From NCBI GenBank assembly GCA_001304105.1, contig LJUR01000006.1:1-60017 (forward strand): a stretch of 60,017 nucleotides of DNA, in the 5' to 3' direction. Positions 9,279-49,037 of this stretch are shown here, piece after piece. The stretch is from Deltaproteobacteria bacterium SM23_61 (GTDB lineage: Bacteria > Desulfobacterota > SM23-61). Position 1 is the stretch's first letter; each line of letters opens with the position of its first letter. Below the pieces are notes generated by a model. That model saw nothing but the letters and a program-made list of their open reading frames with translations. It was not told the origin of the DNA and made no database searches. Both the position numbers and the translations under genes were made by a program.

Positions 9279-9467
9279 TCAAAAAATCAAAATCGCGTAT
9301 CCTTTTTGAACAGCTCGGGCGGCAACGGGACTAAAGGGACTCTGCTCCTCCCCTACCTTCGTCTCCCAGTAGAGGCCATCCTTCTTTGCCGGGAAGTCCA
9401 TGCCTGCCTGCCCCGTCTTAACCGGGTGCCTGCCTGCCGGTAGGCAGGGGTGGGGAGCTTCATTCAT
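9279..9467 (-). pseudogene. Possible DUF2950-like gene fragment fused to a palindromic repeat
   Basis: DFPAKKDGLYWETKVGEEQSPFSPVAARAVQKGY resembles, from my memory of the family, the DGLYW...SPLGPL...GY core of DUF2950, the usual DUF3300 partner. The first 22 codons are read from CCTGCC palindromes. Confidence 0.3.
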
Positions 9468-11125
9468 TTCCTGAACCCGTTGAAGATGTTGATCAAACCA
9501 TTGGTCGAAGAGTCATGGGAGGTCGATTCTTTCTCGTCCTTCAACTCAGGAAGGATCCTGTTTGCGAGCTGCTTCCCGAGTTCAACCCCCCACTGGTCGA
9601 AGCTGAAGACGTTCCAGATGACCCCCTGAACAAAGATCTTGTGCTCGTACATGGCAACGAGACTTCCCAACGTCCTGGGATTTATTTTTTTGACCAAAAT
9701 GGAATTCGTTGGCCTGTTCCCTTTGAATACCTTGTGGGGCAGGAGCCTTTTCATTTCCTCATCACCGGCCCCTGACCGCTTCAGCTCCTGAGCCACTTCT
9801 TCTTTGGTCTTTCCTTTCATGAGGGCCTCGGTCTGGGCAAAGAAATTGGAGAGGAGGATTGGATGATGCTCACCGACAGGATTGTGGCTGATAGCAGGAG
9901 CAATGAAGTCGCAGGGAATGAGTTTCGTTCCCTGATGGATAAGCTGGTAAAAAGCATGCTGCCCGTTCGTCCCGGGTTCGCCCCAAATCACAGGGCCAGT
10001 CTGATAGCTCACTTCCCGGCCACCCCGGTCAACGAACTTTCCATTACTCTCCATATTCCCCTGCTGAAAGTAGGCTGGAAAGCGGTGCATGTATTGGTCG
10101 TAGGGTAAGATGGCTTCGGTCTGGGAACCAAAGAAATTCGTATACCAGATCCCGATCAAAGCCAAGAGGACAGGGATATTCTTTTCAAAAGGGGTCTCCC
10201 TGAAATGGATGTCCATGGTGTGGGCGCCTTCCAGGAGTTCGACAAAATTCTCAAATCCCATCGTGCAAGCGATAGGGAGTCCGATCGCGGACCAGAGGGA
10301 ATACCTTCCGCCCACCCAGTCCCAGAACCTGAACATGTTTTCAGGATCGATCCCAAATCTTCTCACCGCTTCCTCATTCGTGGAGATGGCGACAAAATGA
10401 TTCTTAACCCGGGATTCATCCTTCGCGACGTCGAGAAACCATCTTTTCGCGGTCAGGGCATTCGTCATGGTCTCCTGGGTGGTGAAGGTCTTGGAGGCAA
10501 TGATGAATAGGGTGGTCTCAGGGGAGAGGGGTTTCAGGGTTTCTACAATGTGTGTTCCATCAACGTTTGACACGAAGTGGGGATGAAGGTGAGGCTTCCA
10601 GTAGGGTTTCAGCGCCTCGGTGGCCATGACCGGTCCAAGATCTGAACCTCCGATCCCAATGTTGACAACGTCTGTCATCCCTTTACCCGTGTATCCCTTC
10701 CACTGACCTGAAAGGACGCTTTCTGAAAACTGTTCCATCTGCTTTAGAACGGCATTGACCGCAGGCATGACATCGATGCCACCCACGTAGATCGGAGTAT
10801 TGGATCGATTCCTCAGAGCCACGTGGAGGACGGCCCGCTTTTCGGTCTCATTGATCTCATCCCCTGTAAACATCCTCTCTATGGCCCCTTTCAGCTTGCA
10901 CTCACGGGCGAGTCCAAGAAGGAGGCGTAACGTCTCCTGAGTGATAATATTTTTGGAGTAGTCTACGACGACATCTTCGAACCTGAGCGAAAACCTGGAG
11001 AACCTTTTAAGGTCCCGACGAAAGAGATCCACCATGTGGCGGTTTTTCATCACCTTGTAATGCTCTTTCAGTTTCTTCCAGGACTTCGTTTTCGTTGGAT
11101 TAATTTTTGGAAGCATGGAACTCAC
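9464..11125 (-). CDS. pgi: Glucose-6-phosphate isomerase
   Basis: 553 aa. [53 protein letters not shown]. Confidence 0.95.
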
Positions 11126-11143
11126 CTCAAATGAATCTTATTT

Positions 11144-11176: not shown

Positions 11177-12406
11177 TCATGGGGTCTTCCCCTCACCCTC
11201 CTGGGCCCTAAGTAGAACTGCTACGGTTTGCTCCGCGATCTCCCGTTCTTCCTTGGTCCGGATTGCCAAGACCTTCACGGGAGCCCCGTCTCGCTGGATT
11301 TCCAGGACCTCTACGTAATCCTTCTCGTTTTTCCCGTCGTCCACCGTGATTCCGAGCGCCTCGAGCCCGTGGCAGCATCGTTTCCGGATTGGGGCCGCAT
11401 TCTCGCCGATGCCGCCAGTGAAGACCACGGCATCGACCCGGCCGAGCACCGCGAAGTAGGCCCCGATGTACTTTTTGATCCGGTAGCAGTAGAGCTCCAG
11501 GGCGAGCTGGGCAAGCGGTTCCCCACGGTTCGCCATCTGGAGAATCTCCCGCATATCGTTGACCCCGCAAATCCCCTTCAGCCCGCTTCCTTTATTTAAA
11601 AGCGCTTCGAGGTCTCGCTCCGGCATTTTGGTCGCTCTTCGCAAGTAAAAGGGAACGGCCGGATCCAGGTCTCCGCAGCGGGTCCCCATGACCAAACCCT
11701 CCAGGGGCGTCATACCCATCGACGTGTCCACGCTCCGTCCCTGCCGGATCGCAGCCGCACTCGCCCCGTTTCCAAGATGGAGGGTGATCAAATTAAGGAA
11801 CGTAAGAGGCTTTCCAATATGAGCTGCCGCTTTCTTGGCCACCCAGAGGTGGGAGGTTCCATGGAAACCGTAACGCCGGACGTGATGGAGGGCGTAAAGG
11901 CTGTAGGGCAGCGCATAGATAAATGCATGGGGCGGCATGGACTGGTGGAAGGCCGTATCGAAAACTGCTACCTGCGGTACTCCCGGAAAAACTTGCCGGG
12001 CCGCTTCGATCCCCAGAAGGTTTGCAGGGTTGTGAAGCGGGGCGAGGGGAATGAGTTCTCGAATCGTCTCCATCACCTTCTCATCGATCAATACAGGCTC
12101 CTGGAAAGCCTCCCCCCCATGGACTACCCGGTGGCCAATCCCAAGGATCTCCGCAGGGTTTGTGATCACGGCGGAATTGGCAGGCATACTCAAGATGAAG
12201 CGAAACCCTTCCTCATGGTTAGCCACCCGTGCCCGGCGGACGGTTTCTTTGGTTGTACCCGAGGGCCCGTAGGCACGGTGGGTGTGCTGGCTCTCGCTCT
12301 CCCCAATCCGTTCTAGCAACCCGGAGGAGAGGACAGAGAAGTCAGAGCTCTCGAATACTTCATACTTGACCGAGGAGCTTCCCGAGTTGATCACCACAAC
12401 CTTCAT
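11177..12406 (-). CDS. ackA: Acetate kinase
   Basis: 409 aa. VLVINSGSSSVKY-type N-terminus (VVVINSGSSSVKYEV), GHRVVHGG, YGFHGTSH, VFTGGIGEN. Confidence 0.95.
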   Translation of the reverse strand: MKVVVINSGSSSVKYEVFESSDFSVLSSGLLERIGESESQHTHRAYGPSGTTKETVRRARVANHEEGFRFILSMPANSAVITNPAEILGIGHRVVHGGEAFQEPVLIDEKVMETIRELIPLAPLHNPANLLGIEAARQVFPGVPQVAVFDTAFHQSMPPHAFIYALPYSLYALHHVRRYGFHGTSHLWVAKKAAAHIGKPLTFLNLITLHLGNGASAAAIRQGRSVDTSMGMTPLEGLVMGTRCGDLDPAVPFYLRRATKMPERDLEALLNKGSGLKGICGVNDMREILQMANRGEPLAQLALELYCYRIKKYIGAYFAVLGRVDAVVFTGGIGENAAPIRKRCCHGLEALGITVDDGKNEKDYVEVLEIQRDGAPVKVLAIRTKEEREIAEQTVAVLLRAQEGEGKTP

Positions 12407-12467: not shown

Positions 12468-12629
12468 GATGAGAGGCGGTCGGGTGGAAAAGATTTAGAG
12501 CGGTAACCTCTAACAGTTTGGATTCAGGGGTGCCAAGCATAACAAAACACTCCATTTGCAACCAACGAAGGTTCCCCATACCTAAAAGACCCGCATTCTA
12601 AAGCTTTGGAACCTGACTGCCTCTCATCC
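12468..12629. mobile_element. MITE-like element, subfamily A copy 1 (~38-nt imperfect terminal inverted repeats)
   Basis: The left arm GATGAGAGGCGGTCGGGTGGAAAAGATTTAGAGCGG is the near reverse complement of the right arm CCCGCATTCTAAAGCTTTGGAACCTGACTGCCTCTCATCC. The right arm overlaps the last ~10 codons and stop of pta. Confidence 0.5.
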
Positions 12630-14736
12630 AGGCGTTTGATTGCGACACAGTCTCCTGGGCCTGGATCGCCGTGATGGCCACAGTATTCACGATGTCTGTC
12701 ACGGTTGCGCCACGGCTCAGGTCGTTGACCGGCCGTTTGAGCCCTTGTATGACCGGGCCGATAGCCACCGCATTGGCGGATCGCTGAACCGCCTTATAGG
12801 TGATATTGCCGTTATTCAGATCCGGAAAGATGAAGACCGTGGCTCTGCCGGCAACCTGGCTCCCGGGCAACTTGACCCTGGCCACGGAGGGGTCTACGGC
12901 GGCATCGTACTGGATCGGTCCTTCCACGGGCAGATCCGGCCGCAAGCTTCTGACCCGCCGGGTGGCTTCCCGCACCTTATCCACATCCGCCCCTTTTCCT
13001 GATTCTCCAGTGGAGTAGGAGAGCATAGCCACCCGCGGCTCGATGCCGAAGGCCCAGGCTGTCTCAGCCGAGCTGGTGGCAATGTCTGCCAACTGCTCCA
13101 TGGTCGGTTCCGGGTTCACGGCACAGTCGCCGAAGACGAAGACCCGATCGGGAAGGCACATGAAAAAGACGCTGGAGGCGAGAGAGAAGCCCGGTTTCAA
13201 TCCGATGATTTCAAAGGCCGGCCGCAGCGTGTGGGCTGTCGTATGCACCGCTCCCGAAACAAGCCCGTCCGCCTCTGCGCGATGGACCATAAGGGTCCCG
13301 AAGTAAGCCACATCGGCCACAAGATCGAAGGCCATCTGCTCGGAAATTCCCTTGTGCTTGCGAAGCTCATAGTAGGTGTGGGCATACTCCTCCCTGTGTT
13401 CGGGTTCGGCCGGGTCCAGGAAGGCCGCTCCCTTGAGGGAAAGGCCGAGGGAACTCGCCTTTTGCTCGATTTCTGAGATGGGACCCAGCAGGGTCAGATC
13501 GGCCACTCCGCGCAGGAGCAGGATTTCTGCGGCCCGCAGGATGCGCTCTTCCGTCCCTTCTGGCAAAACGATATGCCTCCGGTTCGATTTGGCCTGTTCA
13601 ACCAGGGAATGCTCAAACATGATCGGCGTGACCCGTTCCGGCCGGGACAGATCGATTCGCTGGCGGAGCGCTTGAGCGTTCATGTATTTTTCCATGTGCC
13701 CCAGCGCAACCGCCATCTTGCGGGGGTTCTCCGGCCGGATCCTCCCTCGAACCTGGGAGGCCTGAGTCCCGGCCGTAAAGGTATCAACCTCCACGGTCAG
13801 GACCGGGACTGGCGACTTGCGCAACCCCTCGATGATGCGCTCCACCTGTGGAGCAGGCCTCAAACCGCCCGTCAGGAGGAGCCCTGCGACTCGGGGGTAG
13901 GTGCTGGCGGCGTCGGCCAGAAGGCTTCCCAGGATGATATCGGATCGGTCTCCCGGCGTGATGACAAGGGTCCCCTCAACCAAGTGGTTGAGAAAGTTGG
14001 GAAGCTCCATGGCCCCGATCTTAATATCCTCCACTTCTCGGGTGAAACTCTCCGGGTCTCCGCTCCAGCGGGTGGCGCCGAGGTACTCGGCAATCTCGCC
14101 TACCGTAGGTTTGGCCAGCATGGCGAGTTCGGGCAAGGCAAAGATCGGAACCTGGCTCTTCTCTCTAGCCAGTAACCCCAGAATCTCGTCCACCCGTTCG
14201 GGGGCGACCCGGTTGACAAAGAGGGCGAGGACATCACACCTCTTGGCCTCCAACAAATTCAGCAGCACCAAAGATCTACGGATGACTTCCTGCGATGTTC
14301 GCCCCCATCCCGTAGCCACCGGGGCCGCCAGGGCACCCAGGTTGTTGGCGACATCGATATTGAAGTCGAGGGCAAGTCCCGGGGGTATATCATGGAAGCC
14401 GGTGCCTAGGCATACGACGACATCGCAGTCCGACTCCAGGGACCCGTATCCTTCAAGGATCCGCTTCAAGACTTCGTCGTATTTTTCTTCGGCCACGAGA
14501 GCGCGGGCCTTCTCATGGGTCATTCCGTACTTGATGCGGTTGGGTAAAGGAAGGTGGTAACGGTTGGAAATCAAGCGAATGGCGTCATCCTTAGTCTCCC
14601 CCTCACGGACGAGGGGACGGAAAAAACCCAGTTTCTGTACTTGGCGGGAGAGGACTTCCATGATCCCAAGCAGCACTACCGATTTCCCGGCTTGAGGTTC
14701 TGCCCCGAATACGTAAATGCTCTTCGCCTTAGGCAT
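12598..14736 (-). CDS. pta: Phosphate acetyltransferase, long form (N-terminal P-loop-like/DRTGG domains + PTA domain)
   Basis: 712 aa. The C-terminal half has ILLPEG-type HIVLPEGTEERIL, GLVSGAVHTTAHTLRP, CAVNPEP, SYSTGESGKG. Confidence 0.95.
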   Translation of the reverse strand: MPKAKSIYVFGAEPQAGKSVVLLGIMEVLSRQVQKLGFFRPLVREGETKDDAIRLISNRYHLPLPNRIKYGMTHEKARALVAEEKYDEVLKRILEGYGSLESDCDVVVCLGTGFHDIPPGLALDFNIDVANNLGALAAPVATGWGRTSQEVIRRSLVLLNLLEAKRCDVLALFVNRVAPERVDEILGLLAREKSQVPIFALPELAMLAKPTVGEIAEYLGATRWSGDPESFTREVEDIKIGAMELPNFLNHLVEGTLVITPGDRSDIILGSLLADAASTYPRVAGLLLTGGLRPAPQVERIIEGLRKSPVPVLTVEVDTFTAGTQASQVRGRIRPENPRKMAVALGHMEKYMNAQALRQRIDLSRPERVTPIMFEHSLVEQAKSNRRHIVLPEGTEERILRAAEILLLRGVADLTLLGPISEIEQKASSLGLSLKGAAFLDPAEPEHREEYAHTYYELRKHKGISEQMAFDLVADVAYFGTLMVHRAEADGLVSGAVHTTAHTLRPAFEIIGLKPGFSLASSVFFMCLPDRVFVFGDCAVNPEPTMEQLADIATSSAETAWAFGIEPRVAMLSYSTGESGKGADVDKVREATRRVRSLRPDLPVEGPIQYDAAVDPSVARVKLPGSQVAGRATVFIFPDLNNGNITYKAVQRSANAVAIGPVIQGLKRPVNDLSRGATVTDIVNTVAITAIQAQETVSQSNAWMRGSQVPKL

Positions 14737-14751
14737 GCCCGTTTTCCCCTA

Positions 14752-14872
14752 ATTGCGGAATGAAAAAGATAAACCCAAAATCCGAAATCTAAATCCGAAC
14801 CAGAAATGCGGAATGCGGATTGCGGGAGGCGGATGAAAAAGCAAACCCCAAAATCCGCAATCCGAAATCGGC
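14752..14872. repeat. CGGAAT/CGGATT word-stutter with two ~35-nt direct units and dyad symmetry
   Basis: GCGGAATGAAAAAGATAAACCCAAAATCCGAAATC (14755-14789) versus GCGGATGAAAAAGCAAACCCCAAAATCCGCAATCCGAAATC (14829-14869). ATGCGGAATGCGGATTGCGGG lies between them. It fills the pta-AOR spacer. Confidence 0.75.
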
Positions 14873-14874
14873 GA

Positions 14875-16632: not shown

Positions 16633-18376
<1,744 letters not shown>

Positions 18377-20120: not shown

Positions 20121-20867
20121 TCATTTCTTTATCAACTGTGCGGCCACGGCCTCGGCAGCGCGTTTCGCTGCCTCGGGGTCGCCCAGATAGTAGCTGCGCA
20201 TCGGTTTCAAGTCGTCGTGAAGTTCATACACCAGGGGTATTCCCGTGGGGATGTTGAGGCCCACAATCTCCTTGTCGGAGACATTGTCGAGATACTTCAC
20301 CAAAGCCCTCAGACTATTCCCATGGGCCGAGATGATCACCCGCTTTCCGGCTTTCACCGTAGGGGCGATGGTTTCATGCCAGTAAGGAAGGAAACGTTCC
20401 ACGGTGTCCTTCAAACACTCTGTGAGAGGGACCTCCTCGGGCTTCATATCGGCATAACGTGGATCGCGGCCGGGGTAAAGGGGATCATCGGGAGTGAGGG
20501 CAGGGGGTTGCACATCGTAGCTTCGGCGCCAGATCTTCACCTGTTCCACCCCGTGCTTTTCCGCCATCTCTGCCTTATTGAGACCCTGAAGGGCGCCATA
20601 ATGGCGCTCATTTAGGCGCCAGCTGTTGTAGACCGGGATCCACATGAGATCCATCTCCTCCAGGGCAAGCCAAAGGGTCTTGATGGCCCGTTTCAACACG
20701 GAGGTGTAGGCGATGTCGAAGACGTATCCCTCCTTCTTCAGGAGTCGGCCTGCTTCGATTGCTTCCTCTGTCCCTTTCTCGGAGAGCCCGACATCCACCC
20801 AGCCGGTAAACCGGTTCTCTTTGTTCCATTCGCTCTCGCCGTGGCGGAGCAGGACGATCTTTTTCAT
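20121..20867 (-). CDS. gpmA: 2,3-bisphosphoglycerate-dependent phosphoglycerate mutase
   Basis: [36 protein letters not shown]. Confidence 0.95.
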
Positions 20868-37939: not shown

Positions 37940-37949
37940 ATTTCCACCA

Positions 37950-38180: not shown

Positions 38181-38185
38181 AGGTT

Positions 38186-38632
38186 CTACTTGGGGATGCC
38201 GCCTGCCAGCACAAGGGCAAAGACGAAAGCGAAGACCGCAAAGCCTTCCACCAGCGCCGCAGGGGCCAGGGAAATTCCAAAGACCTCGGGCTTGCTTTTC
38301 GAGGCATTGATTGCCGCCGCACAGGCGCTTCCCTGGGCGAAGGCGCTCAACATCAAGGCCAGCCCGGCAAGAAGTCCGATGGCGAACATGCCTGGGGCAT
38401 TCGTCACCGTCACCTCACGGCGCAGCATGACCATGACCACGATGCCATAGATCGTTTGAGACGATGGCATCGCGGCGATGCCGACGAAACGGCCAAAGCC
38501 TCTTTCAACATCGAGCATGGCCCCGCATGCCGCCATGCCGGCACGCGAACAGCCCACCATGCTGCCAATGGCACCCAGCGCCAAGGGCGCATAAATGCCC
38601 ATCCATCCCAGTGTCAGTATCAATGCATCCAT
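38186..38632 (-). CDS. atpK: V-type ATPase proteolipid subunit K (4-TM)
   Basis: 148 aa in two hairpins, with the ion-binding Glu in the last helix (ALVEGFAVFAF). Confidence 0.9.
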   Translation of the reverse strand: MDALILTLGWMGIYAPLALGAIGSMVGCSRAGMAACGAMLDVERGFGRFVGIAAMPSSQTIYGIVVMVMLRREVTVTNAPGMFAIGLLAGLALMLSAFAQGSACAAAINASKSKPEVFGISLAPAALVEGFAVFAFVFALVLAGGIPK

Positions 38633-40404
38633 CCTTCATTCCCCTTTCTCTTAAATGGTTGATAGAGCCTGCCCTCTTCTTTAAGTCCCCAATTGAAGAA
38701 CTCGATCACGTTCAGGCGAAGCCCATGGATCACGCAACTTGAGAGGCCCAGCATGAAGTTCATGGCATGTCCAAGAACAAGGACCCCTAGGGCCAGGATC
38801 ACCCCCATCCTCGGAATCCCTGCGCGGATCTGTTCGGCCATCTCATTAAAAGAGACTGCCAGAGAGGCTGTGGCCAGCCCCAGGGCGAAAAGGCGGAGGT
38901 AGCTAAGGACATCGCCAAAAACGCTCGTGATTTTTGTCAAGCCGAGGAATCCCTGGATCAATCGTGAAAGCGGTTTCGCCCCCACACCCGTAAAAAGGAT
39001 GATGAGAAGTCCTCCCGCCACCATCACGATCGTCGCAAGCTGCCCGAGCCACCCGATCTTGAGTGACATGGCCGCTGCCAGCATAAGACCTCCAGCCACA
39101 ATGCATGCCCATCCGAGCGAGGGCAGGGCCTCGACACGCCTTCCGTACCGCCAGGCATCCATCACATTCCCTAACACCACGTGGATCACTCCGATGACGA
39201 CCGAAATCGCCATCATCAGGCTCGTATTCGACATGTCGATGAGCCGGAGATTCGCTAGGAGCGAACCTGGCGAAGGTGAGACTCCGAAGTAACTTCCCAC
39301 CATGATGCCATAAACGATGGAGGCGAGAACCAATGCCATTCCCAGAAAGCGGAAACGGAGGCCCACCTCTGAGCGTCCCAACTTCTTCCAGAACATCAGC
39401 AATCCCAGGCCGAGCAGGGCAGCGTAGCCAGCGTCAGACAGAATCATGGCAAAAAAGACTGCAAAGGAGATGAAGACCACCGAAGACGGGTCCCAGGTCC
39501 AATATCCCGGCGTCATATAGAACGTGACGAGGTCCTCACCGACTGCAAGAGAGGGCGGATTTCGGAACATCGTGGGTGGTTGATCGGATGGGCCCGGTTC
39601 CTCAGCTTCGAACATCACTCCCTGCTTCTCCGCGTAATCCCGGAGTTCTCCGACCTTTTCTTTGGGGGCCCACCCCTGTAAGGCAAAGACCGGGTCTTGG
39701 TCGAACGTTTGCGAAGCGGCTTCGATCCTTGCGGCCCTGTCCTCCAATTGACCGAGGCTTCGTGCAAAGAGGAAGCACCAACGGGTCAGGTAGGCGCGCT
39801 CGGCCTGTGCGTCTTCGATCGCCAATTCCACCTCTTCGAGTCGGTGCTCCAGCTCATGCCGAGGCTGGCTGCCCAAGTGGCTTCGTGGGACCGGCATTTC
39901 CGCGGGTTCTCTCTCGGAGACGACTGCGACGTAACAGTAGAGTTGATCACTCCGGACGACTTCCCAGGGGAAGGGGATGGCCTCCATTTTTTTCATCTCT
40001 TTGTGAGGGAACACGTAAAACCAAAGCCTCTGGCCGGCCATCTCTTCCACAGGGGGGAAAACAAAGTCTCCCCAGGGCTTCAGGTCCCCGATGCGTTTGG
40101 TCAGAGCGTCTCGCTCCTCTTCAAGGTCCTGCAAGCGGTGCTGAAGGTCGTGCACCTGACGTTCGACCCCGGCGGCATCGAACCGAACAGGATCTCTCAC
40201 CTGTCGTCTCCGTTGCGGGGAACCCAGCAGGAACTTCAATGCCTCACGCGCTCTCTGCGAGGGACCTTCCTGACTCACCCTTTCCCCCTCCGTGGTCAGA
40301 GGAATGAGCTCAAGACAGCCCCTGTCCTGCAAGTCGTCGAGCAGTTTTCCCTTGTCGTCCATCAGGCCGACGAAGGTGACCTTGTTTAATGCAATGATGC
40401 TCAT
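38620..40404 (-). CDS. atpI: V-type ATPase subunit I (a-subunit homologue)
   Basis: 594 aa. It has a cytoplasmic coiled N-half and a C-half with ~7 TM, including the conserved Arg region (SYLRLFALG). Confidence 0.9.
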   Translation of the reverse strand: MSIIALNKVTFVGLMDDKGKLLDDLQDRGCLELIPLTTEGERVSQEGPSQRAREALKFLLGSPQRRRQVRDPVRFDAAGVERQVHDLQHRLQDLEEERDALTKRIGDLKPWGDFVFPPVEEMAGQRLWFYVFPHKEMKKMEAIPFPWEVVRSDQLYCYVAVVSEREPAEMPVPRSHLGSQPRHELEHRLEEVELAIEDAQAERAYLTRWCFLFARSLGQLEDRAARIEAASQTFDQDPVFALQGWAPKEKVGELRDYAEKQGVMFEAEEPGPSDQPPTMFRNPPSLAVGEDLVTFYMTPGYWTWDPSSVVFISFAVFFAMILSDAGYAALLGLGLLMFWKKLGRSEVGLRFRFLGMALVLASIVYGIMVGSYFGVSPSPGSLLANLRLIDMSNTSLMMAISVVIGVIHVVLGNVMDAWRYGRRVEALPSLGWACIVAGGLMLAAAMSLKIGWLGQLATIVMVAGGLLIILFTGVGAKPLSRLIQGFLGLTKITSVFGDVLSYLRLFALGLATASLAVSFNEMAEQIRAGIPRMGVILALGVLVLGHAMNFMLGLSSCVIHGLRLNVIEFFNWGLKEEGRLYQPFKRKGNEGWMH

Positions 40405-41030
40405 GAGACCGTCTCTCCGGGAAAGGCCAGCTGTCGCTGCTCGGCCTGCTTCGCCTTGGCAATCTTTGATGTCACCACAGCCGCTCGGTCGGTATCGCCC
40501 AAGAAAATTTGAATGCGCTGGATATTTCTCTTGGTCGTCGGAATCAGAATCTTATCGAAAAGGTTGACTCGTTGCGTAATCCGGCGGGTCGCCTGCTCGA
40601 GTACTCGGACCCGCTCCCGCGCGATCTCAACCCGGATGCGCTCCTCAGCGGCCTCCTTCAACCGTTCCACCAATACATCGACCCAAGCCGGCGTCGCGAG
40701 TCGTGAATAGTCTGTCACCTCGAATTCCATCCGTTCGAGGACCGGGAGCCTGACCCCCACGATATTCTGCTCTCCTACCCTCAGGTCGGCCTTCTTGACC
40801 AAACCGGTGAGATCCATGTCCGGGCTCGCCAGCATGGGCAGCTCAGCGCCGATCTTCGTATCGAGTTCCTCCAAAGCTGCTTGAGCAGCGGCATGCTCCT
40901 GCCTTGCCTTTTGCGTTTCCACCGTGAGCTGTCGACGCTTCAGGTCGAGTGAAGGCAGCAATCGTCTGTAGAGCTTGAGGAGCTCGCGCTGTTTTTGCAG
41001 AGACTGTTTGCTCAGTTTCAACTTGGCCAT
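40401..41030 (-). CDS. atpD: V-type ATPase subunit D (central stalk)
   Basis: 209 aa. It has an N-terminal coiled-coil segment and C-terminal helices, with a D-subunit-like N-terminus LKLYRRLLPSLDLKRRQL. Confidence 0.88.
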   Translation of the reverse strand: MAKLKLSKQSLQKQRELLKLYRRLLPSLDLKRRQLTVETQKARQEHAAAQAALEELDTKIGAELPMLASPDMDLTGLVKKADLRVGEQNIVGVRLPVLERMEFEVTDYSRLATPAWVDVLVERLKEAAEERIRVEIARERVRVLEQATRRITQRVNLFDKILIPTTKRNIQRIQIFLGDTDRAAVVTSKIAKAKQAEQRQLAFPGETVS

Positions 41031-41296: not shown

Positions 41297-42637
41297 TCAC
41301 TCCTTTTTCGCCCCGGACTCCCCCTTGGGGAGGTACTTGTCGATGAGGGTCTGTTTCATGAGCAACTCCTGTGGTTCAAAGCATTCAGCCAGCGTCTTCC
41401 AGCAGAGATCAAGAGCCTCGAGGACAGGGATCGACACTCGAATGTCCATGAACCGCTCGCGAAAGAGGCGGCCGAATTTGAGACATTTTTGGTCGAAGGG
41501 AGACAGTTCAAAGGCCATGGCCTCCTTCTTCTCTGCCTCCTGAGCGTTCGCGTAGAAGCGAATCATCGTATTCATGATCTGACCGTGGTCCTCCCGCGTG
41601 GCTTTGCCGATGACTCGCTGCTTCAGCCTCGAGAGGGAACCGAAGGGATCGATGATCCCGTCGTGAAGATAGAACTGTCCCTCTGTGATGTACCCCGTGT
41701 TGTCAGGAACGGGATGGGTCACATCATTCCCGGGCATGGTGGTCACCGTGAGAATCGTCACGGAGCCGGCGCCTTTGAAGTCGCAGGCCTTTTCATAGCG
41801 CCTGGCAAGCTGCGTGTAAAGGTCCCCCAGGTAACCCCGAGTAGCCGGAACGCGTTCCAACGCAATCCCGATCTCTTTCATGGCATCTGCGTACGCCGTC
41901 ATGTCCGTCAGGAGGACCAGGACACGCTGGTTCTTCTCAACCGCAAACCGTTCGGCCACGGCGAGGGCCATATCCGGGACGAGCATGCGTTCCACAATTG
42001 GATCAGACGCCTGATTCACGAACATCACCGTCCGGTGAAAGATGCCGTGCTCCTCGAAGACCGTGCGGAAGAAATGGTAATCGTCAAAGATGAGACCCAG
42101 CCCCCCGAAGACCACGATGTCGGCGTCGGCCTGGAACCCGATGCGGGCGAGCAATTCATTGTAGGGCTCTCCGGCGACGGAGAAGATGGGGATCTTTTGG
42201 CTTTCGACCAGGCAGTTGAAGAGATCGATCATGGGCACGTTGGTCTGAATCATTTTTGAGGCCAGGATCCGCATCATCGGGTTGACGGTTGGTCCGCCCG
42301 CCTTGATCTTTGGGTCTCCTGTGAGGTCCGGGCCTCCGTCGATAGGCTCACCCGATCCCCTGAATATCCGACCCAAGATGTTTTCAGAATAGGTGACGTC
42401 GAGGGGGCGGTTGAGAAATTGGACGGTCGCATCCGTTGATAACCCTTTTCCTCCCGCAAAGACCTGGAGGCTGACGATGTCGCGGTTGAGCTCAACCACG
42501 CGTGCAATCGAGGTCTCGCCATCGACGTTCTCCACGAGAGCGACATCTCCAAAGGCGACATCTTTCGCCCTGACCCGGATCGTGTCGCCCACAATTTCAA
42601 GCAACTGAGTGTGGCGTAGCATCTGTTCAAACATCAC
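41297..42637 (-). CDS. atpB: V-type ATPase subunit B
   Basis: 446 aa. It is B-subunit-like throughout (RIFRGSGEPIDGGP, ERVPATRGYLGDLYT) and lacks a canonical P-loop Lys context. Confidence 0.93.
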   Translation of the reverse strand: MMFEQMLRHTQLLEIVGDTIRVRAKDVAFGDVALVENVDGETSIARVVELNRDIVSLQVFAGGKGLSTDATVQFLNRPLDVTYSENILGRIFRGSGEPIDGGPDLTGDPKIKAGGPTVNPMMRILASKMIQTNVPMIDLFNCLVESQKIPIFSVAGEPYNELLARIGFQADADIVVFGGLGLIFDDYHFFRTVFEEHGIFHRTVMFVNQASDPIVERMLVPDMALAVAERFAVEKNQRVLVLLTDMTAYADAMKEIGIALERVPATRGYLGDLYTQLARRYEKACDFKGAGSVTILTVTTMPGNDVTHPVPDNTGYITEGQFYLHDGIIDPFGSLSRLKQRVIGKATREDHGQIMNTMIRFYANAQEAEKKEAMAFELSPFDQKCLKFGRLFRERFMDIRVSIPVLEALDLCWKTLAECFEPQELLMKQTLIDKYLPKGESGAKKE

Positions 42638-44290: not shown

Positions 44291-45274
44291 TCATCCTTTT
44301 TTCTTCATTTCGTGATAGGCGAAAGCAGCTGCTCCTAAAACGCCCGAATTGCGTCCGAGCGCGGCCTGGACGAAGCGGACCGCTTGGTAGGCCCTTTTGA
44401 AAGCCCGTCTCTCCGCCACCTCATAAGCAGGCTTGAGCAACCGGTCTCCTATGTTGGATAGCCCGCCTCCGATCACGATCATTTCAGGATTGAAGATGTT
44501 GATCAGATTCGCCAGTCCCACCCCCACGTAGTAGGCAGTCTTCAGAATCAGCTCGTTGGCCACGCGATCGCCCTTTTCCGCGGCGGAATGAATGGTCTCC
44601 GCTGTAACGTTTTCGATCTTCCCATCAGCAAAGTTGAGAATCGTTGTTTCCTCTCCTGACTCGATTCGCTTTTGGGCAGCCCTGGCAAGGGCTGTCCCGG
44701 AGGCCAGAGCCTCCCAACATCCTTGGTTTCCGCACTGGCAAAGAGGTCCTTCATCCGCGATGGTCATATGGCCAATCTCCCCAGCCATGCCCGTGGAGCC
44801 GCTGTAAATCTGTCCGTCAATCACGATGCCTCCTCCTATGCCCGTGCTGATCGTGACATAGACGAAATGAGAAACTCCCTTTGCCGCTCCGAAGTAATAT
44901 TCTCCAAGGGCTGCTGCACTTCCGTCGTTGATCAGGAAAGCCTTTTTCTTCAGCTTCTCCTGAAGGATGTCCCGCAGAGGGACATCTTCCCATCCTGGCA
45001 GATTGGGAGAGGTGAAAAGAATGCCTGCCTTCGGGTCGGACAGGCCCGGTGCTCCCACGCCGATAGCAGAGACGCCGCCGATCGTTATGGACGCTCCTTT
45101 GAGGGCGCGCTCAGCCGATTCCAGAATTGCCTGAATCACCGCCTCCGGACCCTTCGAGGCAGGGGTCACGCTGTGGTCGCGGGAAAGCATCTTCCCCTGA
45201 GGGTTGATGATTGAAGTAAGGATTTTTGTTCCTCCCAGGTCGATTCCAAGGATGAGCAGATCGCTGTTTGGCAT
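44291..45274 (-). CDS. glk: ROK-family glucokinase
   Basis: GIDLGGTK, the ROK signature region, and the zinc motif GHMTIADEGPLCQCGNQGCWE. Confidence 0.9.
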   Translation of the reverse strand: MPNSDLLILGIDLGGTKILTSIINPQGKMLSRDHSVTPASKGPEAVIQAILESAERALKGASITIGGVSAIGVGAPGLSDPKAGILFTSPNLPGWEDVPLRDILQEKLKKKAFLINDGSAAALGEYYFGAAKGVSHFVYVTISTGIGGGIVIDGQIYSGSTGMAGEIGHMTIADEGPLCQCGNQGCWEALASGTALARAAQKRIESGEETTILNFADGKIENVTAETIHSAAEKGDRVANELILKTAYYVGVGLANLINIFNPEMIVIGGGLSNIGDRLLKPAYEVAERRAFKRAYQAVRFVQAALGRNSGVLGAAAFAYHEMKKKG

Positions 45275-45415: not shown

Positions 45416-46444
45416 TCATCCTTTAAAAAGTGTCGTTCCTTCTCCTCTCAGATCCCTGACGGCTTCTTTCACACGCTCCGCCATGGAAGCTTCGCCTGAC
45501 GCGAGGTAGGAACGAGGATCATAATTCTTCTTGTTTCCTACTTCCCCATCCACCTTGAGGACGCCGTCATAATTCTTTAACATGTGGTGGGCAATGGCTC
45601 GGGTAAAGGCATATTGGGTGTCGGTATCGATGTTCATCTTGACCACGCCATAGTCAACGGCCTCGCGGATCTCTTGCAACGTTGACCCCGACCCTCCGTG
45701 AAAAACGAGAGCGAATCGAGCTTCTTTACCATAAGCCTTTTCGACGGCATCTTGGCAATCTTTCAAAATGGAGGGCTTGAGCTTCACATGCCCCGGCTTG
45801 TAAACGCCGTGCACGTTCCCAAAGGTCGCAGCGAGTAGGTAACGAGCACCTTTCACGGCAGTGAAGCGTCTGGCTACCTCAAGGGTATCTTCGGGCGTCG
45901 TGTAAAGCTTCGCAGAGGCCTCCGCCTTGACGCCATCCTCTTCTCCCCCAACGACCCCAGCCTCGATTTCAAGGATCAACTCGTTCTTATGGCAGCGTTC
46001 AAGAAGTTTGACGGATATATCGAGGTTCTCCTTTAGGGGCAGGGCGCTTCCGTCAAACATATGGCTGTTGAAGAGATTGGGCCTGCTTGCAGCACGGCGC
46101 CTCTCCGTTTCATCGATGAGCGGGATGACGAAACGATCGAGCACATCGGCCTGACAGTGATCCGTGTGCAGCGCGACATAGATGGGGTAATGATCTGCCA
46201 CCCGGTGGACATGGTCGGCGATCGAGATCGCACCTAGGGCCATGTTCTTCACAGAAGAGCCAGAGGCAAAGGCACCGCCGCCAGTGGAGACTTGAATAAT
46301 TCCATCGCTCTTGCTTTCGGCAAGCCCTTTTAGAACGGCGTTGGCTGTGGTGAGTGACGTGACATTAATGGCAGGGTAGGCAAAGTGTTTCTCCTTTGCC
46401 CTGTCGATCATCTTACAGTAGGTTTTATAGTCAGCAACTGGCAT
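45416..46444 (-). CDS. fba: Class II fructose-1,6-bisphosphate aldolase
   Basis: 342 aa. YPAINV, HTDHC, FHGGSGS, NIDTDTQ. Confidence 0.93.
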   Translation of the reverse strand: MPVADYKTYCKMIDRAKEKHFAYPAINVTSLTTANAVLKGLAESKSDGIIQVSTGGGAFASGSSVKNMALGAISIADHVHRVADHYPIYVALHTDHCQADVLDRFVIPLIDETERRRAASRPNLFNSHMFDGSALPLKENLDISVKLLERCHKNELILEIEAGVVGGEEDGVKAEASAKLYTTPEDTLEVARRFTAVKGARYLLAATFGNVHGVYKPGHVKLKPSILKDCQDAVEKAYGKEARFALVFHGGSGSTLQEIREAVDYGVVKMNIDTDTQYAFTRAIAHHMLKNYDGVLKVDGEVGNKKNYDPRSYLASGEASMAERVKEAVRDLRGEGTTLFKG

Positions 46445-46511
46445 AAATCCTCCTTGAATGAAGTAATAAGAGCATGGAGCATAGGGTATAGGGCACAGGG
46501 GAAGTACTCAT

Positions 46512-49037
46512 TCATTCCTTATCCATCCGGATCGGCTTCGCATTCCAGATTCTTTCGCAATAATCCCGGATGGATCGGTCCGAAGAAAACTTCCCCATGC
46601 GAGCTACATTCAGAATCGACATCCTCGTCCAGTTCTTCTGGTCCTGATAAACTTGGTTTACCCGATCCTGGCATTCGATATAGGAGGCGTAGTCAGCAAA
46701 AAGCATGTAGTCGTCGCGAGAGATCAGAGAATCGACCAATGGCTCGAAGAGGGTTCGATCCCCTCGGGAGAAATAGCCGGAACGGATCTGATCGATGGCT
46801 TCCCGAAGCTCGGAGTTTGAATGGTGGTATTCCCACGGGTTGTACCCTTTCGATTTCAGACCCATGACCTCCTCAGCGGTTAACCCGAAGAGAAAGAAAT
46901 TTTCGGCGCCCACTTCCTCGCGGATCTCCACATTCGCGCCATCCAGTGTCCCAATCGTCAGGGCACCGTTCATGGAGAACTTCATGTTCCCCGTTCCCGA
47001 GGCCTCTTTGCCTGCGGTCGAGATCTGCTCGGAAAGATCCGCAGCGGGGTAGATGGGCTGTGCATGCTTTACGTTGAAGTCGGGGTAAAAGACAACCTTC
47101 AGGCGGCCCGCAATATCGGGGTCGTTGTTGACCACATCTCCCACCGAGTTGATGAGCTTGATGATCAGCTTTGCCACGAAGTATCCGGGCGCCGCCTTTC
47201 CGCCGAAAATCACTGTCCGCGGCGGGACATCCTCCTTGAGATTCTTCTTCAGGCGATTATAGAGCGTGATGACATGAAGGACGTTGAGATGCTGGCGTTT
47301 GTACTCGTGGATCCGCTTCACCTGGATATCGAAGAGCGTATCCGGATCGACGACGATCCCCGTGTCCCCTTTGATGAGCTTGGCGAGCCGCTTCTTGTTA
47401 TTGAGTTTGATCCGACGCCACGCTTCTTGAAACTTGGGGTCATCTGCAAAGGGCTCAAGTTTTCTTAGATCCTCCGAGTGGCTGATCCAACGATCACCGA
47501 TCTTGCTGGTGATCAAATCGGTCAGTTCCGGGTTACTCAAAGCGACCCAGCGACGGGGCGTGATGCCATTTGTGACGTTGGAGAATTTCTCAGGAGTGAG
47601 CTCATAGAGATCGCGAAGAACCGTCTGTTTGAGCAACTCCGTGTGCAATGCGGCCACGCCATTGATCGCATGGCTTCCCACACTGGCCAGATGGGCCATC
47701 CGCACATACCTGTCGTGTGACTCATCGATAATCGACAGGCGTCGAACCCTATCCTCATCGCCAGGATGTTTGAGGCGAACCTCATCCAGGAAACGTCTGT
47801 TAATTTCGTAAATGATCTCCAGGTGCCTCGGGAGAATTTCTCTGAAAAGAGGTAACGGCCACTTCTCCAGGGCCTCCGGAAGAAGGGTATGATTGGTGTA
47901 GGCGAACGTCTTCTGAGTAATCTGCCAGGCCTCCTCCCAGCCCATGAGGTGCTCATCGACAAGCAGCCTCATCAGTTCGGCAATCGCAATGGAGGGATGC
48001 GTGTCGTTCAATTGAACTGCAACGATCTCATGAAAATTTTCGAGAGGGGCCTTTTTGATACGGGACATGCGCATCATGTCCTGAAGGGAACAGGAGACAA
48101 AAAAGTACTGCTGGATTAGGCGAAGCCTCTTCCCGATCTCGGGTTCATCGTTTGGATAGAGCACCTTCGAGATCGTTTCGGAAACAACCTTTTCATTCAC
48201 AGCACCGTAGTAGTCTCCCACGTTGAATGCCTGAAAGTCGAAGGATTCAACCGCCTCCGATTTCCACAGGCGCAGCACGTTGATCATCTCCACCTTATAA
48301 CCCGGGACAGGGGTATCATACGCCATTCCCTTCACCACACGGCTTGGGATCCAGCGGACTCGATACCTGCCCTCGTCATCCGTGTAACCCTCGGTGTGGC
48401 CCCCGAAGCCCACATTGAACACGATCTCGGGCCGCGGGATCTCCCAAGGGTTGCCAAAACGGAGCCACTTGTCGGTGATCTCAACCTGCCAGCCATCCTC
48501 AATCTTCTGGTCGAAAATTCCAAATTCGTAACGGATCCCATATCCGAAGGCAGGAATCTGGAGGGTCGCGAGGGAATCCATGAAGCAGGCGGCCAGCCTT
48601 CCTAGGCCGCCATTGCCCAGACCGGGTTCCTCCTCTTGCTCGAGGAGGTCGTCGAGCTCAAGCCCTAATTGCTTGACCGCCTGACGAACCTCGTTATCGA
48701 TTCCCAGGCTGATCAGGCTGTTTCCAAGGTGTGGTCCCATAAGGAACTCTGCAGAGAGGTAGCTAACATATTTGATATCCTGCATCATGAGATCCTGAGA
48801 CCTGACCCAGCGACTGAGCATACGATCGCGAACGGTGTAGGCCAGGGCCATGTACCAGTCGTTTCTCGTTGCCAGTTGCGGAACCCTTCCCTGAACGTAG
48901 TAAAGATTTTCAAGGATGGCACGAGCGATAATCTCAGGGCTGGTTGCCGTGCGAATATCGTCACAAATTTCCTGTGGTTTCGGTATCGTCGCCTTGCGCT
49001 TCCTCGGGCTTTTTGCAGACCGCTCTTTATCTGCCAT
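46512..49037 (-). CDS. glgP: Glycogen/maltodextrin phosphorylase
   Basis: 841 aa. GLGNGGLGRLAAC, PLP-lysine motif EASGTGNMKFSMNGALTIGTLDGANVE. Confidence 0.96.
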   Translation of the reverse strand: MADKERSAKSPRKRKATIPKPQEICDDIRTATSPEIIARAILENLYYVQGRVPQLATRNDWYMALAYTVRDRMLSRWVRSQDLMMQDIKYVSYLSAEFLMGPHLGNSLISLGIDNEVRQAVKQLGLELDDLLEQEEEPGLGNGGLGRLAACFMDSLATLQIPAFGYGIRYEFGIFDQKIEDGWQVEITDKWLRFGNPWEIPRPEIVFNVGFGGHTEGYTDDEGRYRVRWIPSRVVKGMAYDTPVPGYKVEMINVLRLWKSEAVESFDFQAFNVGDYYGAVNEKVVSETISKVLYPNDEPEIGKRLRLIQQYFFVSCSLQDMMRMSRIKKAPLENFHEIVAVQLNDTHPSIAIAELMRLLVDEHLMGWEEAWQITQKTFAYTNHTLLPEALEKWPLPLFREILPRHLEIIYEINRRFLDEVRLKHPGDEDRVRRLSIIDESHDRYVRMAHLASVGSHAINGVAALHTELLKQTVLRDLYELTPEKFSNVTNGITPRRWVALSNPELTDLITSKIGDRWISHSEDLRKLEPFADDPKFQEAWRRIKLNNKKRLAKLIKGDTGIVVDPDTLFDIQVKRIHEYKRQHLNVLHVITLYNRLKKNLKEDVPPRTVIFGGKAAPGYFVAKLIIKLINSVGDVVNNDPDIAGRLKVVFYPDFNVKHAQPIYPAADLSEQISTAGKEASGTGNMKFSMNGALTIGTLDGANVEIREEVGAENFFLFGLTAEEVMGLKSKGYNPWEYHHSNSELREAIDQIRSGYFSRGDRTLFEPLVDSLISRDDYMLFADYASYIECQDRVNQVYQDQKNWTRMSILNVARMGKFSSDRSIRDYCERIWNAKPIRMDKE

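Follow-up and report, generated by a model that had tools for sequence, protein, structure and literature searches.

A probable gene supercluster for glucan fermentation, with an embedded V-type ATPase and a tungsten oxidoreductase pair, in the sediment bacterium SM23_61

The contig LJUR01000006.1 of Deltaproteobacteria bacterium SM23_61 (assembly GCA_001304105.1), an uncultured anaerobe of sediments whose core genes have their closest relatives in metagenome-assembled genomes (MAGs) of Thermodesulfobacteriota and Nitrospirota, carries at positions 9464-49037 an array of 30 genes, all on the minus strand, that combines glycogen breakdown, glycolysis and fermentation genes with a seven-gene V-type ATPase, a K+ channel and a predicted tungsten oxidoreductase pair, WorS-WorL (WorSL). 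The whole stretch analyzed, 60,017 nucleotides from position 1 of the contig, is referred to below as the window. We consider it probable that the block is a chromosomal supercluster for the fermentative use of stored or imported alpha-glucans, in which the V-ATPase and the K+ channel have a role in ion transport and WorSL takes part in glycolysis. Every component family is already known, and no published description of this type of cluster was found in the literature. Glycolytic genes are usually dispersed; a transferable and nearly complete glycogen-to-acetate/lactate block shows how sediment anaerobes could package survival under starvation or without an electron acceptor, and the interest of the locus rests mainly on the WorSL clade and the V-ATPase cassette.

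Genes were called on the open reading frames (ORFs) of the window using NCBIfam models with curated cut-offs, and Pfam. In the direction of transcription, the first half of the array consists of glgP, fba, a ROK-family kinase gene (glk), pfk, the V-ATPase genes in the order B-D-I-K-E-DUF2764-A, and the genes for the periplasmic adaptor (membrane fusion protein, MFP), the permease and the outer-membrane factor (OMF) of a resistance-nodulation-division (RND) efflux system; the second half consists of pyk, the gene for a beta-phosphoglucomutase (beta-PGM), a GH65 phosphorylase gene, ldh, the K+ channel gene, gap, gpmA, pgm, eno, worS, worL, pta, ackA and pgi. Matches above the NCBIfam cut-offs were obtained for pgi, ackA, pta, eno, pgm, gpmA, gap, ldh, pyk, pfk, class II fba and glgP, which include Embden-Meyerhof steps 2, 3, 4, 6, 8, 9 and 10 (pgi, pfk, fba, gap, gpmA, eno, pyk), and also for V-ATPase subunits A, B, D and K, while the ROK kinase, GH65, the beta-PGM equivalog and V-ATPase subunits I and E are family-level matches only. 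The catalytic motifs are intact in the array enzymes examined. Eight gene pairs overlap by 4-17 nt (for example eno/worS/worL, GH65/beta-PGM, atpA/DUF2764/atpE and atpK/atpI/atpD), and ribosome-binding sites of the GGAGG type, that is, strong Shine-Dalgarno sequences, precede most genes. Chance cannot account for eight specific glycolysis genes lying within 40 kb. The gene content, coordinates and single-strand organization that an initial annotation had read from the sequence alone are correct, and all the genes that it listed are there, but it overlooked the 6-kb MFP-RND-OMF operon at 28630-34713. The minus-strand run itself exceeds the array, with ends near positions 980 and 58190.

Going by the family assignments, GlgP with Pgm, and the GH65 phosphorylase with beta-PGM and the ROK kinase, would supply glucose-6-phosphate at little ATP cost; Pgi, Pfk and Fba, followed by Gap, GpmA, Eno and Pyk, would lead from there to pyruvate, from which Ldh would form lactate, and Pta and AckA would form acetate and ATP. 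The proposed catabolic unit, with phosphorolytic entry of glycogen and alpha-glucosides, the Embden-Meyerhof pathway and an outlet to lactate and acetate, agrees with these assignments, and a precedent exists in sulfate reducers, which accumulate polyglucose and ferment it (PMC4287179). The block is not autonomous, because it lacks tpi, pgk, an enzyme for the step from pyruvate to acetyl-CoA and a debranching enzyme. For steps 5 and 7, probes consisting of E. coli TpiA and Pgk, validated with Pfam at 323 and 472 bits, gave no tblastn match at E < 1 anywhere in the window, and no pyruvate:ferredoxin oxidoreductase (PFOR), pyruvate formate-lyase, pyruvate dehydrogenase, alcohol dehydrogenase, hydrogenase or debranching enzyme was found among the window ORFs. 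The earlier description of a self-contained module with all the classic fermentative exits does not survive these absences, among which that of glgX and PFOR contrasts with clusters of relatives that carry both. If the pathway operates, tpi, pgk, PFOR or an equivalent, and the debranching enzyme would have to be encoded elsewhere in the genome.

The locus was compared with 375 others (numbered with the prefix L), obtained from species-representative genomes searched with AtpA, GlgP, WorL and a WorL profile and from metagenome contigs searched with Pfk; all window proteins were mapped onto them by tblastn. None of the genomes in the species collection gave a match above 89%, and relatedness is judged here from the best hits of island genes, those of the flank genes being uninformative. 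Taking at least three of nine glycogen/Embden-Meyerhof genes as the definition of a cluster locus, 39 non-redundant ones exist besides the window. They contain pyk in 31 cases, pfk in 23, worL in 21, eno in 16, glgP and gpmA in 15 each, pgi and fba in 13 each, gap and pgm in eight each and pgk in one, with tpi and the V-ATPase in none. Clusters of this family generally lack pgk and tpi, so that the "broken" gap-pgk-tpi trio of the initial annotation, real as far as the missing genes are concerned, is not peculiar to this block.

The same genes are found linked repeatedly in relatives, which shows the linkage to be selected. A Thermodesulfobacteriota MAG (L206, CAYLMK010000017.1) has the operon fba-pfk-pyk-eno-worS-worL-pta-ackA, with 71-88% amino acid identity and with stop and start codons that overlap; a glgP fragment and glgX come after it. 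A second locus (L174, JBFLZG010000062.1) reads fba-glgP-transporter-glgX-eno-gpmA-worS-worL-pta-ackA-rubrerythrin-like-PFOR-pgi, and an 11-kb metagenome contig (L308, Ga0187886_1003735) reads gap-glk-pfk-pyk-K+ channel-eno-gpmA-worS-worL-pgi, with 74-89% identity for the core enzymes and 53-55% for the K+ channel and a partial pgi; its channel homologue (53%) lies between pyk and eno. The order fba-glk-pfk is found in L299, L300 and L308 at 77-82% identity, and in Nitrospirota, including the MAG MnB_6 of a Mn oxidizer, the order is glgP-fba-pfk-pyk-pta-ackA-worS-worL (59-83%). Compared with the Thermodesulfobacteriota and Nitrospirota operons (L206, L174, L308 and L189, CAWAQG010000004.1), the window has the same families at 66-89% identity, the same relative order and glgP and pgi at the ends; L308 shares the K+ channel and glk, and pgk and tpi are absent from both sides. 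Those operons, however, comprise 8-13 genes in 11-20 kb and lack a V-ATPase, and some include glgX and PFOR, which the window does not have. The window holds the largest of a family of such clusters seen in uncultured anaerobes, and the embedded V-ATPase is its single lineage-unique feature. A more distant likeness is offered by cyanobacterial clusters for dark anoxic glycogen fermentation, of which the one on the linear chromosome of Cyanothece 51142 is an example. That of a Pseudanabaena MAG (L141) shares glgP, pgm, eno, pgi, gap, pyk, gpmA and ackA with the window, but the enzymes in the cyanobacterial clusters are 27-69% identical and there is no tungsten oxidoreductase pair, V-ATPase, RND pump or GH65 module.

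Piecewise assembly, as originally suggested, is well supported by synteny, and the conserved core operon on which it took place occurs at 71-89% identity in MAGs of Thermodesulfobacteriota and Nitrospirota. The genes pfk and pyk are directly adjacent in L206, L189, L208, L213, L235, L301, L305 and L306, and the window keeps the order of L206 with inserted blocks: glk, the V-ATPase and RND genes between pfk and pyk, and the segment beta-PGM-GH65, ldh, K+ channel, gap, gpmA and pgm between pyk and eno. These modules recur in other clusters in other orders, as in L375 (pyk-worS-worL-beta-PGM-GH65), in L326, where RND-OMF genes lie beside pgi, pfk and pyk, and in a second large array, L365, which reads MFP-RND (74-83% identity)-OMF-x-pgk-pfk-beta-PGM-GH65-...-ldh-eno-gpmA-fba. 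An ancestral tight operon fba-pfk-pyk-eno-worS-worL-pta-ackA would accordingly have accreted glk, received a mobile block of a predicted Na+ V-ATPase and MFP-RND-OMF between pfk and pyk, and gained the segment from beta-PGM to pgm between pyk and eno. The spacer repeats that had been cited for such remodeling are no evidence for it (see below).

The genes worS and worL are paired in 119 loci; in the window they stand between eno and pta, with no NAD or flavin subunit adjoining. The best match of WorL in the Protein Data Bank (PDB) is the aldehyde:ferredoxin oxidoreductase (AOR) of P. furiosus (1AOR, 188 bits), and the protein is distant from every solved member of the family; relative to 1AOR, the CxxCxxxC...C cluster ligands and the second-shell Thr, Glu and Tyr are kept, and probably the His as well. 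The model NF040818 for GAPOR, the archaeal glyceraldehyde-3-phosphate:ferredoxin oxidoreductase, matches WorL with 28 bits against a cut-off of 1300, and at the N-terminus only. On these features we assign WorL-WorS to an uncharacterized clade of Class II tungsten oxidoreductases with a ferredoxin carrier. Two articles (PMC13328260, PMC12096430) name two characterized members of Class II, a sulfonate oxidoreductase and the GOR of C. bescii (Scott et al. 2019), the latter of which oxidizes glyceraldehyde-3-phosphate in glycolysis alongside glyceraldehyde-3-phosphate dehydrogenase (GAPDH). According to the same articles, the C. bescii enzyme likewise consists of a large pterin subunit and a four-cluster polyferredoxin, with ferredoxin as acceptor, and operates in glycolysis next to a normal GAPDH; for the window pair the glycolytic role is a prediction. 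The hosts differ, C. bescii being a thermophilic member of the Firmicutes, whereas the WorSL pairs considered here belong to mesophilic sediment anaerobes, and a profile-based genome scan seeded from a Firmicutes relative found no Caldicellulosiruptor locus among the 80 best WorL relatives.

In a set of 114 non-redundant WorSL loci, mostly from Desulfobacterota and Nitrospirota, one or more glycolysis, glycogen or acetate genes lie within 8-10 kb in 51, and two or more glycolysis/glycogen genes lie nearby in 36. Distant pairs conform as well: in Anaerolineae (41-43% identity) pyk is found directly upstream, and in Firmicutes (53%) glgP is close by. A role in sugar catabolism is favored by these glycolytic neighbors and because GlgX, PFOR and NiFe hydrogenase recur near WorSL loci while alcohol dehydrogenase does not. 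Most likely, although this step is more tentative than the others, WorSL would be a ferredoxin-linked aldehyde oxidoreductase of glycolysis that oxidizes glyceraldehyde-3-phosphate directly to 3-phosphoglycerate. The tungsten oxidoreductase clade is widespread, being found in the glycolysis clusters of dozens of sulfate reducers and Nitrospirota. A mutual exclusion of worL and pgk was also considered as an argument and dropped, since pgk, present in just one of the 39 cluster loci, is too rare for such a test (Fisher p = 0.46).

The "fermentative exit" of the initial annotation corresponds to another explanation, that WorSL acts on aldehydes in general, with ferredoxin, where the pathway leads to acetate, and either converts acetaldehyde and acetate into each other or serves in aldehyde detoxification; we find this somewhat doubtful, though it deserves to be taken seriously. 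The pair does lie directly upstream of pta-ackA in the window, in L174 and in L206, but it is retained in clusters that have no pta-ackA (L308, L250, L375), and its upstream neighbor, which varies (eno, gpmA, gap, pgm, pyk, ackA), is nearly always glycolytic. All four of the second-shell residues that characterize broad-range AORs seem to be retained, and the low score of the archaeal GAPOR model points the same way; yet the glyceraldehyde-3-phosphate-oxidizing GOR of C. bescii, with the same WorL and WorS make-up in the articles cited above, also retains the four residues. Finally, relatives are common in Desulfovibrionaceae, which oxidize alcohols and aldehydes, an association that is not matched by any recurrent alcohol dehydrogenase in the clusters.

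The V-ATPase and the K+ channel reported inside the array are confirmed, all seven ATPase genes being present and intact and the channel having its TTLGYGD filter. For subunits I and E the best models, although below cut-off, are the correct ones, and position and length are conserved in relatives. When subunit K is aligned to NtpK of Enterococcus hirae (2BL2), L61 is replaced by M (a backbone contact) and T64 by S, while Q65, Y68, Q110 and E139 are unchanged; compared with the published list of Na+ ligands, namely a backbone carbonyl, Ser/Thr, Gln, Gln and Glu with a stabilizing Tyr (PMC2359735), the window protein retains the full ligand set and the tyrosine. Because subunit K keeps all Na+ ligands of the E. 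hirae enzyme, the ATPase is predicted to be coupled to Na+ and not to H+. The enzyme would spend a share of the ATP from substrate-level phosphorylation on Na+ expulsion, the K+ channel would provide charge compensation and K+ uptake, and together they could maintain a sodium-motive force and ion balance without a running respiratory chain. The initial idea of an ATP-consuming V-ATPase thus remains plausible, given the mobile cassette, the carbamate kinase neighbor and the 12 of 80 loci described below, with the ion predicted to be Na+ rather than H+.

The closest functional precedent for the combination of V-ATPase and K+ channel would be the ntp operon of E. hirae, which encodes a Na+ V-ATPase and ends with ntpJ, a component of K+ uptake. 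Both would be Na+-ATPases of fermenters, genetically linked to a K+ transport protein and with the same Na+ ligand set; the ntp operon, however, has 11 genes, including those for subunits F, C, G and H, has no DUF2764 gene and no linkage to glycolysis genes, and its K+ partner is a Ktr-type transporter instead of a channel. In gene content the cassette is closer to the Bacteroides/Chlamydia-type operon, which encodes the same seven proteins (E, DUF2764, A, B, D, I, K), among them a duplicated K with a full Na+ site, but the window has the permuted order B-D-I-K and then E-DUF2764-A, its AtpA is about 43% identical to Bacteroides plasmid copies, and it sits in a sugar-catabolic cluster. The seven-gene V-ATPase of B. 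fragilis (PTOS_002482-88) is a second ATPase, normally dispensable and essential under deoxycholate stress, that is predicted to be Na+-coupled and is biochemically uncharacterized (PMC10197588). The DUF2764 gene is a constant member of the cassette, present in 78 of 80 cassette loci; its candidacy as the missing C/d subunit is unsupported, as sequence and profile searches found no relative in the PDB and a single-sequence AlphaFold model (mean confidence, pLDDT, 46) is unusable.

The cassette B-D-I-K-E-DUF2764-A is conserved in 65-80 loci, with the subunit I gene kept in 70 of them and subunits A and B 70-84% identical across at least 10 phyla, the hosts including Desulfobacterota, Planctomycetota, Methylococcales, Gemmatimonadota, Nitrospirota, anammox bacteria, Chlamydiota, Myxococcota and others. 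It is clearly mobile: copies with 61% identity are carried on plasmids in Tateyamaria and Qingshengfaniella (Roseobacteraceae). On the Tateyamaria omphalii plasmid pDOK1-4-1 (L296, 5465-13806) the cassette lies directly downstream of a carbamate kinase gene and near a phosphate acetyltransferase fusion gene. A homologue of glgP, ackA, ldh, pyk, gap or beta-PGM is found within 10 kb of the cassette in 12 of 80 loci, against a rough estimate of about 6% for a random 20-kb window and with six Methylococcales cases that are probably one event, so that the link to substrate-level ATP-forming enzymes is suggestive but not strong. Its repetition suggests membrane energization during fermentation.

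Such a mobile cassette could also be a hitch-hiker that landed between pfk and pyk with no functional tie to glycolysis, in which case the "super-island" would be a conserved operon with unrelated insertions. In Planctomycetota and other phyla the cassette accompanies an RND pump and a K+ channel where glycolysis genes are absent, the 39 other cluster loci all lack it, it is plasmid-borne elsewhere, and the RND pump inserted together with it is decaying in this genome. All seven ATPase genes are nevertheless intact while the adjoining pump decays, the 12 loci with glycolytic or fermentative neighbors come from unrelated lineages, the Tateyamaria copy adjoins carbamate kinase, another substrate-level source of ATP, and the same type of RND pump lies beside glycolysis genes without a V-ATPase in L365 and L326; on balance we think a mere hitch-hiker unlikely. 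A different objection concerns the direction of the enzyme, which might be a Na+-driven ATP synthase fed by Rnf, decarboxylases or other Na+ pumps. In rotary ATPases a duplicated K with one carboxylate per four helices halves the ions per ATP, which favors pumping, and the cassette is typically a second ATPase beside an F-type synthase (Bacteroides, Methylobacter, ORM2a); no Rnf or other Na+ pump is encoded in the window. The K ring with its full Na+ site is compatible with synthesis, of which bacterial V/A-ATPases such as that of Thermus are capable (PMC10197588), and Rnf could build a Na+ gradient if WorSL and PFOR reduce ferredoxin, but we judge a synthase to be quite improbable here. Returning to the supercluster reading with an ATP-consuming pump, a bolder version can be offered only tentatively, as a possibility that we would not call likely: WorSL may represent a large clade of mesophilic ferredoxin-dependent glyceraldehyde-3-phosphate oxidoreductases, spread horizontally with the glycogen fermentation operon among Thermodesulfobacteriota, Nitrospirota and other sediment anaerobes and giving a pgk-independent, ferredoxin-reducing glycolysis, which in this lineage would be coupled to a mobile Na+ V-ATPase and a K+ channel as a starvation-survival unit.

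All three families of a tripartite RND system are present in the block, but the system is not intact in the window. The MFP gene is disrupted by a perfect 17-nt tandem duplication (33834-33867) and the permease gene by a perfect 43-nt tandem duplication (30661-30746), and a 100-nt deletion at 30162/30163 has taken out the stop codon of the permease gene, the spacer, and the start of the OMF gene together with the lipoprotein signal. Only the window has these three frame-disrupting lesions; in four other assemblies from this population the encoded proteins are intact (MFP of 438 aa in L081 and L082, permease of 1059 aa on a JGI contig, OMF of 533 aa), and so are the remaining 27 array genes of the window. 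The pump is a pseudogene in this genome or in this consensus, the lesions representing either a strain-specific triple knock-out or consensus errors at repeats. The same MFP-RND pair is joined to the ATPase cassette in six loci, two of them with a K+ channel; the RND family adjoins atp genes in L013, L039, L046, L069 and L075. Divergent members of the family, with at most 84% identity, recur by glycolysis clusters in unrelated lineages (L365, 1216-7640; L326, 5-2244). Because of this recurrence beside both glycolysis clusters and V-ATPase cassettes, the family is unlikely to be a generic drug pump.

The array itself is real. Look-ups with exact proteins found the locus in five independent assemblies (the sources being JGI 3300027901, 3300028823 and 3300002052 (SMTZ1), three ENA assemblies and one Logan run), colinear over 10165-54003 at 99.6-99.98% identity, and a single contig of 42,002 bp spans 10548-52508, nearly the whole block, from glgP through ackA into the first third of pgi. 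The identical Pfk protein is encoded on five independent contigs. An artefact of assembly or binning that joined different organisms, the concern raised at the outset, is by now largely refuted and in our estimate extremely improbable. What could be cited for it is that the independent contigs all end inside pgi (10165-10548), confirming its first 317 codons, that the histidine kinase gene downstream of pgi is found on 1.7-kb contigs only, that the full Pgi protein is not on record in other assemblies, and that the RND lesions are unique to this assembly. Apart from the colinearity just described, the artefact is contradicted by homogeneous GC content at third codon positions (GC3) across the array (0.66 +/- 0.04) and by pgi, which is full length and evenly similar to relatives along its whole length, so that a chimera at this gene, considered as the contigs stop there, was rejected. 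We read the contig ends as a result of strain heterogeneity and repeat-induced breaks, and the left junction as unconfirmed rather than suspect. The SMTZ1 contig (L167) lacks about 73 nt within pta (window 12922-12996), reducing the product to 686 from 712 aa, which is further indel polymorphism within the population.

Several observations weigh against the supercluster reading. No V-ATPase is found in the 39 other glycolytic cluster loci, only the cluster of this lineage having one, and its position could be an accident of insertion. The Desulfovibrio relatives of WorL (57-60% identity, Desulfovibrionaceae) mostly lack glycolytic neighbors, and pgk is missing from clusters with and without WorSL alike. 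Regarding joint transcription, the non-overlapping spacers measure 34-287 nt and contain strong hairpins, and scans of the window for promoter and terminator consensus sequences do not exceed shuffled controls. Lastly, the 3' half of pgi and the junction with the left flank lie outside all independent contigs.

Table 1. Positions of the genes and spacer elements of the array and its surroundings (window coordinates), with the basis of each assignment
Feature	Coordinates	Strand	Basis and remarks
glgP, glycogen/alpha-glucan phosphorylase, 841 aa, first gene of the array	46512..49037	-	TIGR02093, 1209 bits, cut-off 553
fba, class II fructose-bisphosphate aldolase	45416..46444	-	NF006628, 470 bits, cut-off 297
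ROK-family sugar kinase, probable glucokinase (glk)	44291..45274	-	TIGR00744, 241 bits, cut-off 260
pfk, ATP-dependent 6-phosphofructokinase, 429 aa	42714..44003	-	NF005301, 654 bits, cut-off 400
V-ATPase subunit B	41297..42634	-	NF002555, 699 bits, cut-off 431
V-ATPase subunit D	40401..41030	-	NF002565, 202 bits, cut-off 189
V-ATPase subunit I, membrane stator	38620..40404	-	NF004431/NF004429, about 228 bits, below cut-off; weak Pfam V_ATPase_I match
V-ATPase subunit K, rotor ring, duplicated hairpin, predicted Na+ binder	38186..38632	-	NF007200, 166 bits, cut-off 108
Spacer atpK-atpE, within the V-ATPase cassette	37940..38185	-	Paired palindromes, heptamer arrays, terminator-like hairpin; z = -5.2
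V-ATPase subunit E, peripheral stalk	37280..37939	-	NF002424, 83 bits, below cut-off; weak PDB matches to subunit E
DUF2764 protein	36603..37283	-	PF10962
V-ATPase catalytic subunit A	34817..36619	-	NF003220, 757 bits, cut-off 470; Walker A GPFGAGKT intact
RND periplasmic adaptor (MFP), frameshifted	33368..34713	-	TIGR01730 matches two separate ORFs
RND permease, frameshifted	30089..33377	-	Split into ORFs of 913 and 204 aa
RND outer-membrane factor (OMF), 5' end deleted	28630..30189	-	TIGR01845, 317 bits
pyk, pyruvate kinase	27151..28578	-	NF004491, 527 bits, cut-off 432
Hairpin spacer pyk-beta-PGM	26994..27150	-	Octamer family as in 23713..23844; z = -3.1
beta-PGM-family HAD hydrolase	26202..26993	-	TIGR02009, 169 bits, cut-off 153; equivalog model 100 vs 189
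GH65 alpha-glucoside phosphorylase	23845..26205	-	NF010380, 510 bits, cut-off 838
Hairpin spacer GH65-ldh	23713..23844	-	Inverted tandem octamer arrays (TGGAGTNA / TACTCCAN); RNA fold -59.5 kcal/mol, z = -6.9
ldh, L-lactate dehydrogenase	22780..23712	-	TIGR01771, 353 bits, cut-off 304
K+ channel, 228 aa	22059..22745	-	PF07885 (Ion_trans_2); TTLGYGD selectivity filter
gap, type I glyceraldehyde-3-phosphate dehydrogenase	20917..21978	-	TIGR01534, 428 bits, cut-off 367
gpmA, cofactor-dependent phosphoglycerate mutase	20121..20867	-	NF010713, 429 bits, cut-off 305
pgm, alpha-phosphoglucomutase	18403..20049	-	TIGR01132, 929 bits, cut-off 778
eno, enolase	17069..18355	-	TIGR01060, 691 bits, cut-off 300; stop overlaps worS start
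worS, polyferredoxin, 147 aa	16629..17072	-	Four CxxCxxCxxxC(P) [4Fe-4S] motifs; overlaps eno and worL by 4 nt each
worL, tungsten/pterin aldehyde:ferredoxin oxidoreductase family, 585 aa	14875..16632	-	AFOR_N and AFOR_C domains
Spacer worL-pta	14737..14874	-	CGGATT / AATCCG repeat arrays; fold not significant, z = -0.9
pta, long-form phosphate acetyltransferase	12598..14736	-	NF004167, 879 bits, cut-off 418
ackA, acetate kinase	11177..12406	-	TIGR00016, 464 bits, cut-off 293
pgi, glucose-6-phosphate isomerase, last gene of the array	9464..11116	-	NF001211, 873 bits, cut-off 492
Soluble histidine kinase (two-component genes, 5050..9205)	7802..9205	-	Pfam, NCBIfam
Hairpin outside the island	7719..7801		z = -4.7
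LuxR-type response regulator (two-component genes)	6636..7355	-	Pfam, NCBIfam
Lone receiver (two-component genes)	5050..5454	-	Pfam, NCBIfam

At the sugar entry, the beta-PGM gene overlaps the GH65 gene by 4 nt, and the GH65 protein is roughly equidistant from kojibiose phosphorylase (3WIQ) and maltose phosphorylase (1H54).

Tandem heptamers or octamers occur in 6 of 18 spacers overall and in four of the nine that measure at least 100 nt, which falls short of the repeats "in nearly every longer spacer" of the initial annotation. In the clearest cases an array is followed by its own reverse complement, for example (TGGAGTNA)n ... (TACTCCAN)n, so that the transcript would form a long hairpin with a mismatch every 7-8 nt; the sequences of the repeat units vary from spacer to spacer. 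The atpK-atpE spacer contains an 11-bp stem followed by a T-run (38037-38012). Similar heptamer arrays in inverted pairs (GGCAAGT, GATTACT / TAACTGA-like, AAGTGGC) lie outside the island at 5550-5580, 6598-6637, 7273-7310 and 7782-7814, and they are reminiscent of the short heptamer tandem repeats known from cyanobacteria and large sulfur bacteria. The equivalent spacers in L174 and L206 are only 15-44 nt long and have no repeats. Because the repeats are found beyond the block as well, and the corresponding spacers of relatives do not have them, they are no scars of assembly, nor can they be taken as a sign of remodeling; they are lineage-specific intergenic elements, possibly stabilizers or processing sites of transcripts.

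A promoter-like site lies upstream of glgP (49101-49073), in a promoter scan that is overall at chance level, and the Rfam and tRNA scans of the window were empty. A 16-bp palindrome, TTCNAAAGCTTTNGAA, has two copies only, upstream of ackA (12596-12611) and upstream of pfk (44223-44238); as a shared operator it is a weak candidate, being at chance level in 9 of 100 shuffles and absent from relatives. The GC-rich palindrome CCTGCCTGCCGGCAGGCAGG is present in three copies, at the end of the array (9429-9449) and twice in the atpK-atpE spacer (38015-38035 and 38113-38133), and independent short-read contigs break near palindromes of this type.

The flanks differ from the array in composition, with a GC3 of 0.56 +/- 0.07, a difference that is compatible with foreign origin and high expression alike. 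Scans with tRNA, Pfam and NCBIfam models found no tRNA or integrase in the window, and there is no flanking direct repeat. Just upstream of glgP, a low-GC stretch (49100-52300, 0.42-0.46) with small hypothetical genes and a phage-type metallopeptidase gene (PF18894) may be a mobile-element remnant that marks the boundary of the array. On the other side, the two-component genes downstream of the array, whose histidine kinase has no transmembrane segments, are possible candidate regulators, and they are not conserved beside the clusters of relatives. The left flank further contains genes for a ParA/RepA-like partition ATPase (980-1660), a PIN-domain toxin (5771-6160) and a "23S rRNA intervening sequence protein" (7359-7718), which may point to a plasmid or mobile background. 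At 3787-4290 on the minus strand a secreted helical protein of 167 aa without a Pfam match is encoded; homologues with 57-59% identity are found at the edges of tungsten oxidoreductase/glycolysis clusters in L113/L213 and L177/L238, and one with 44% is present in ORM2a (L175).

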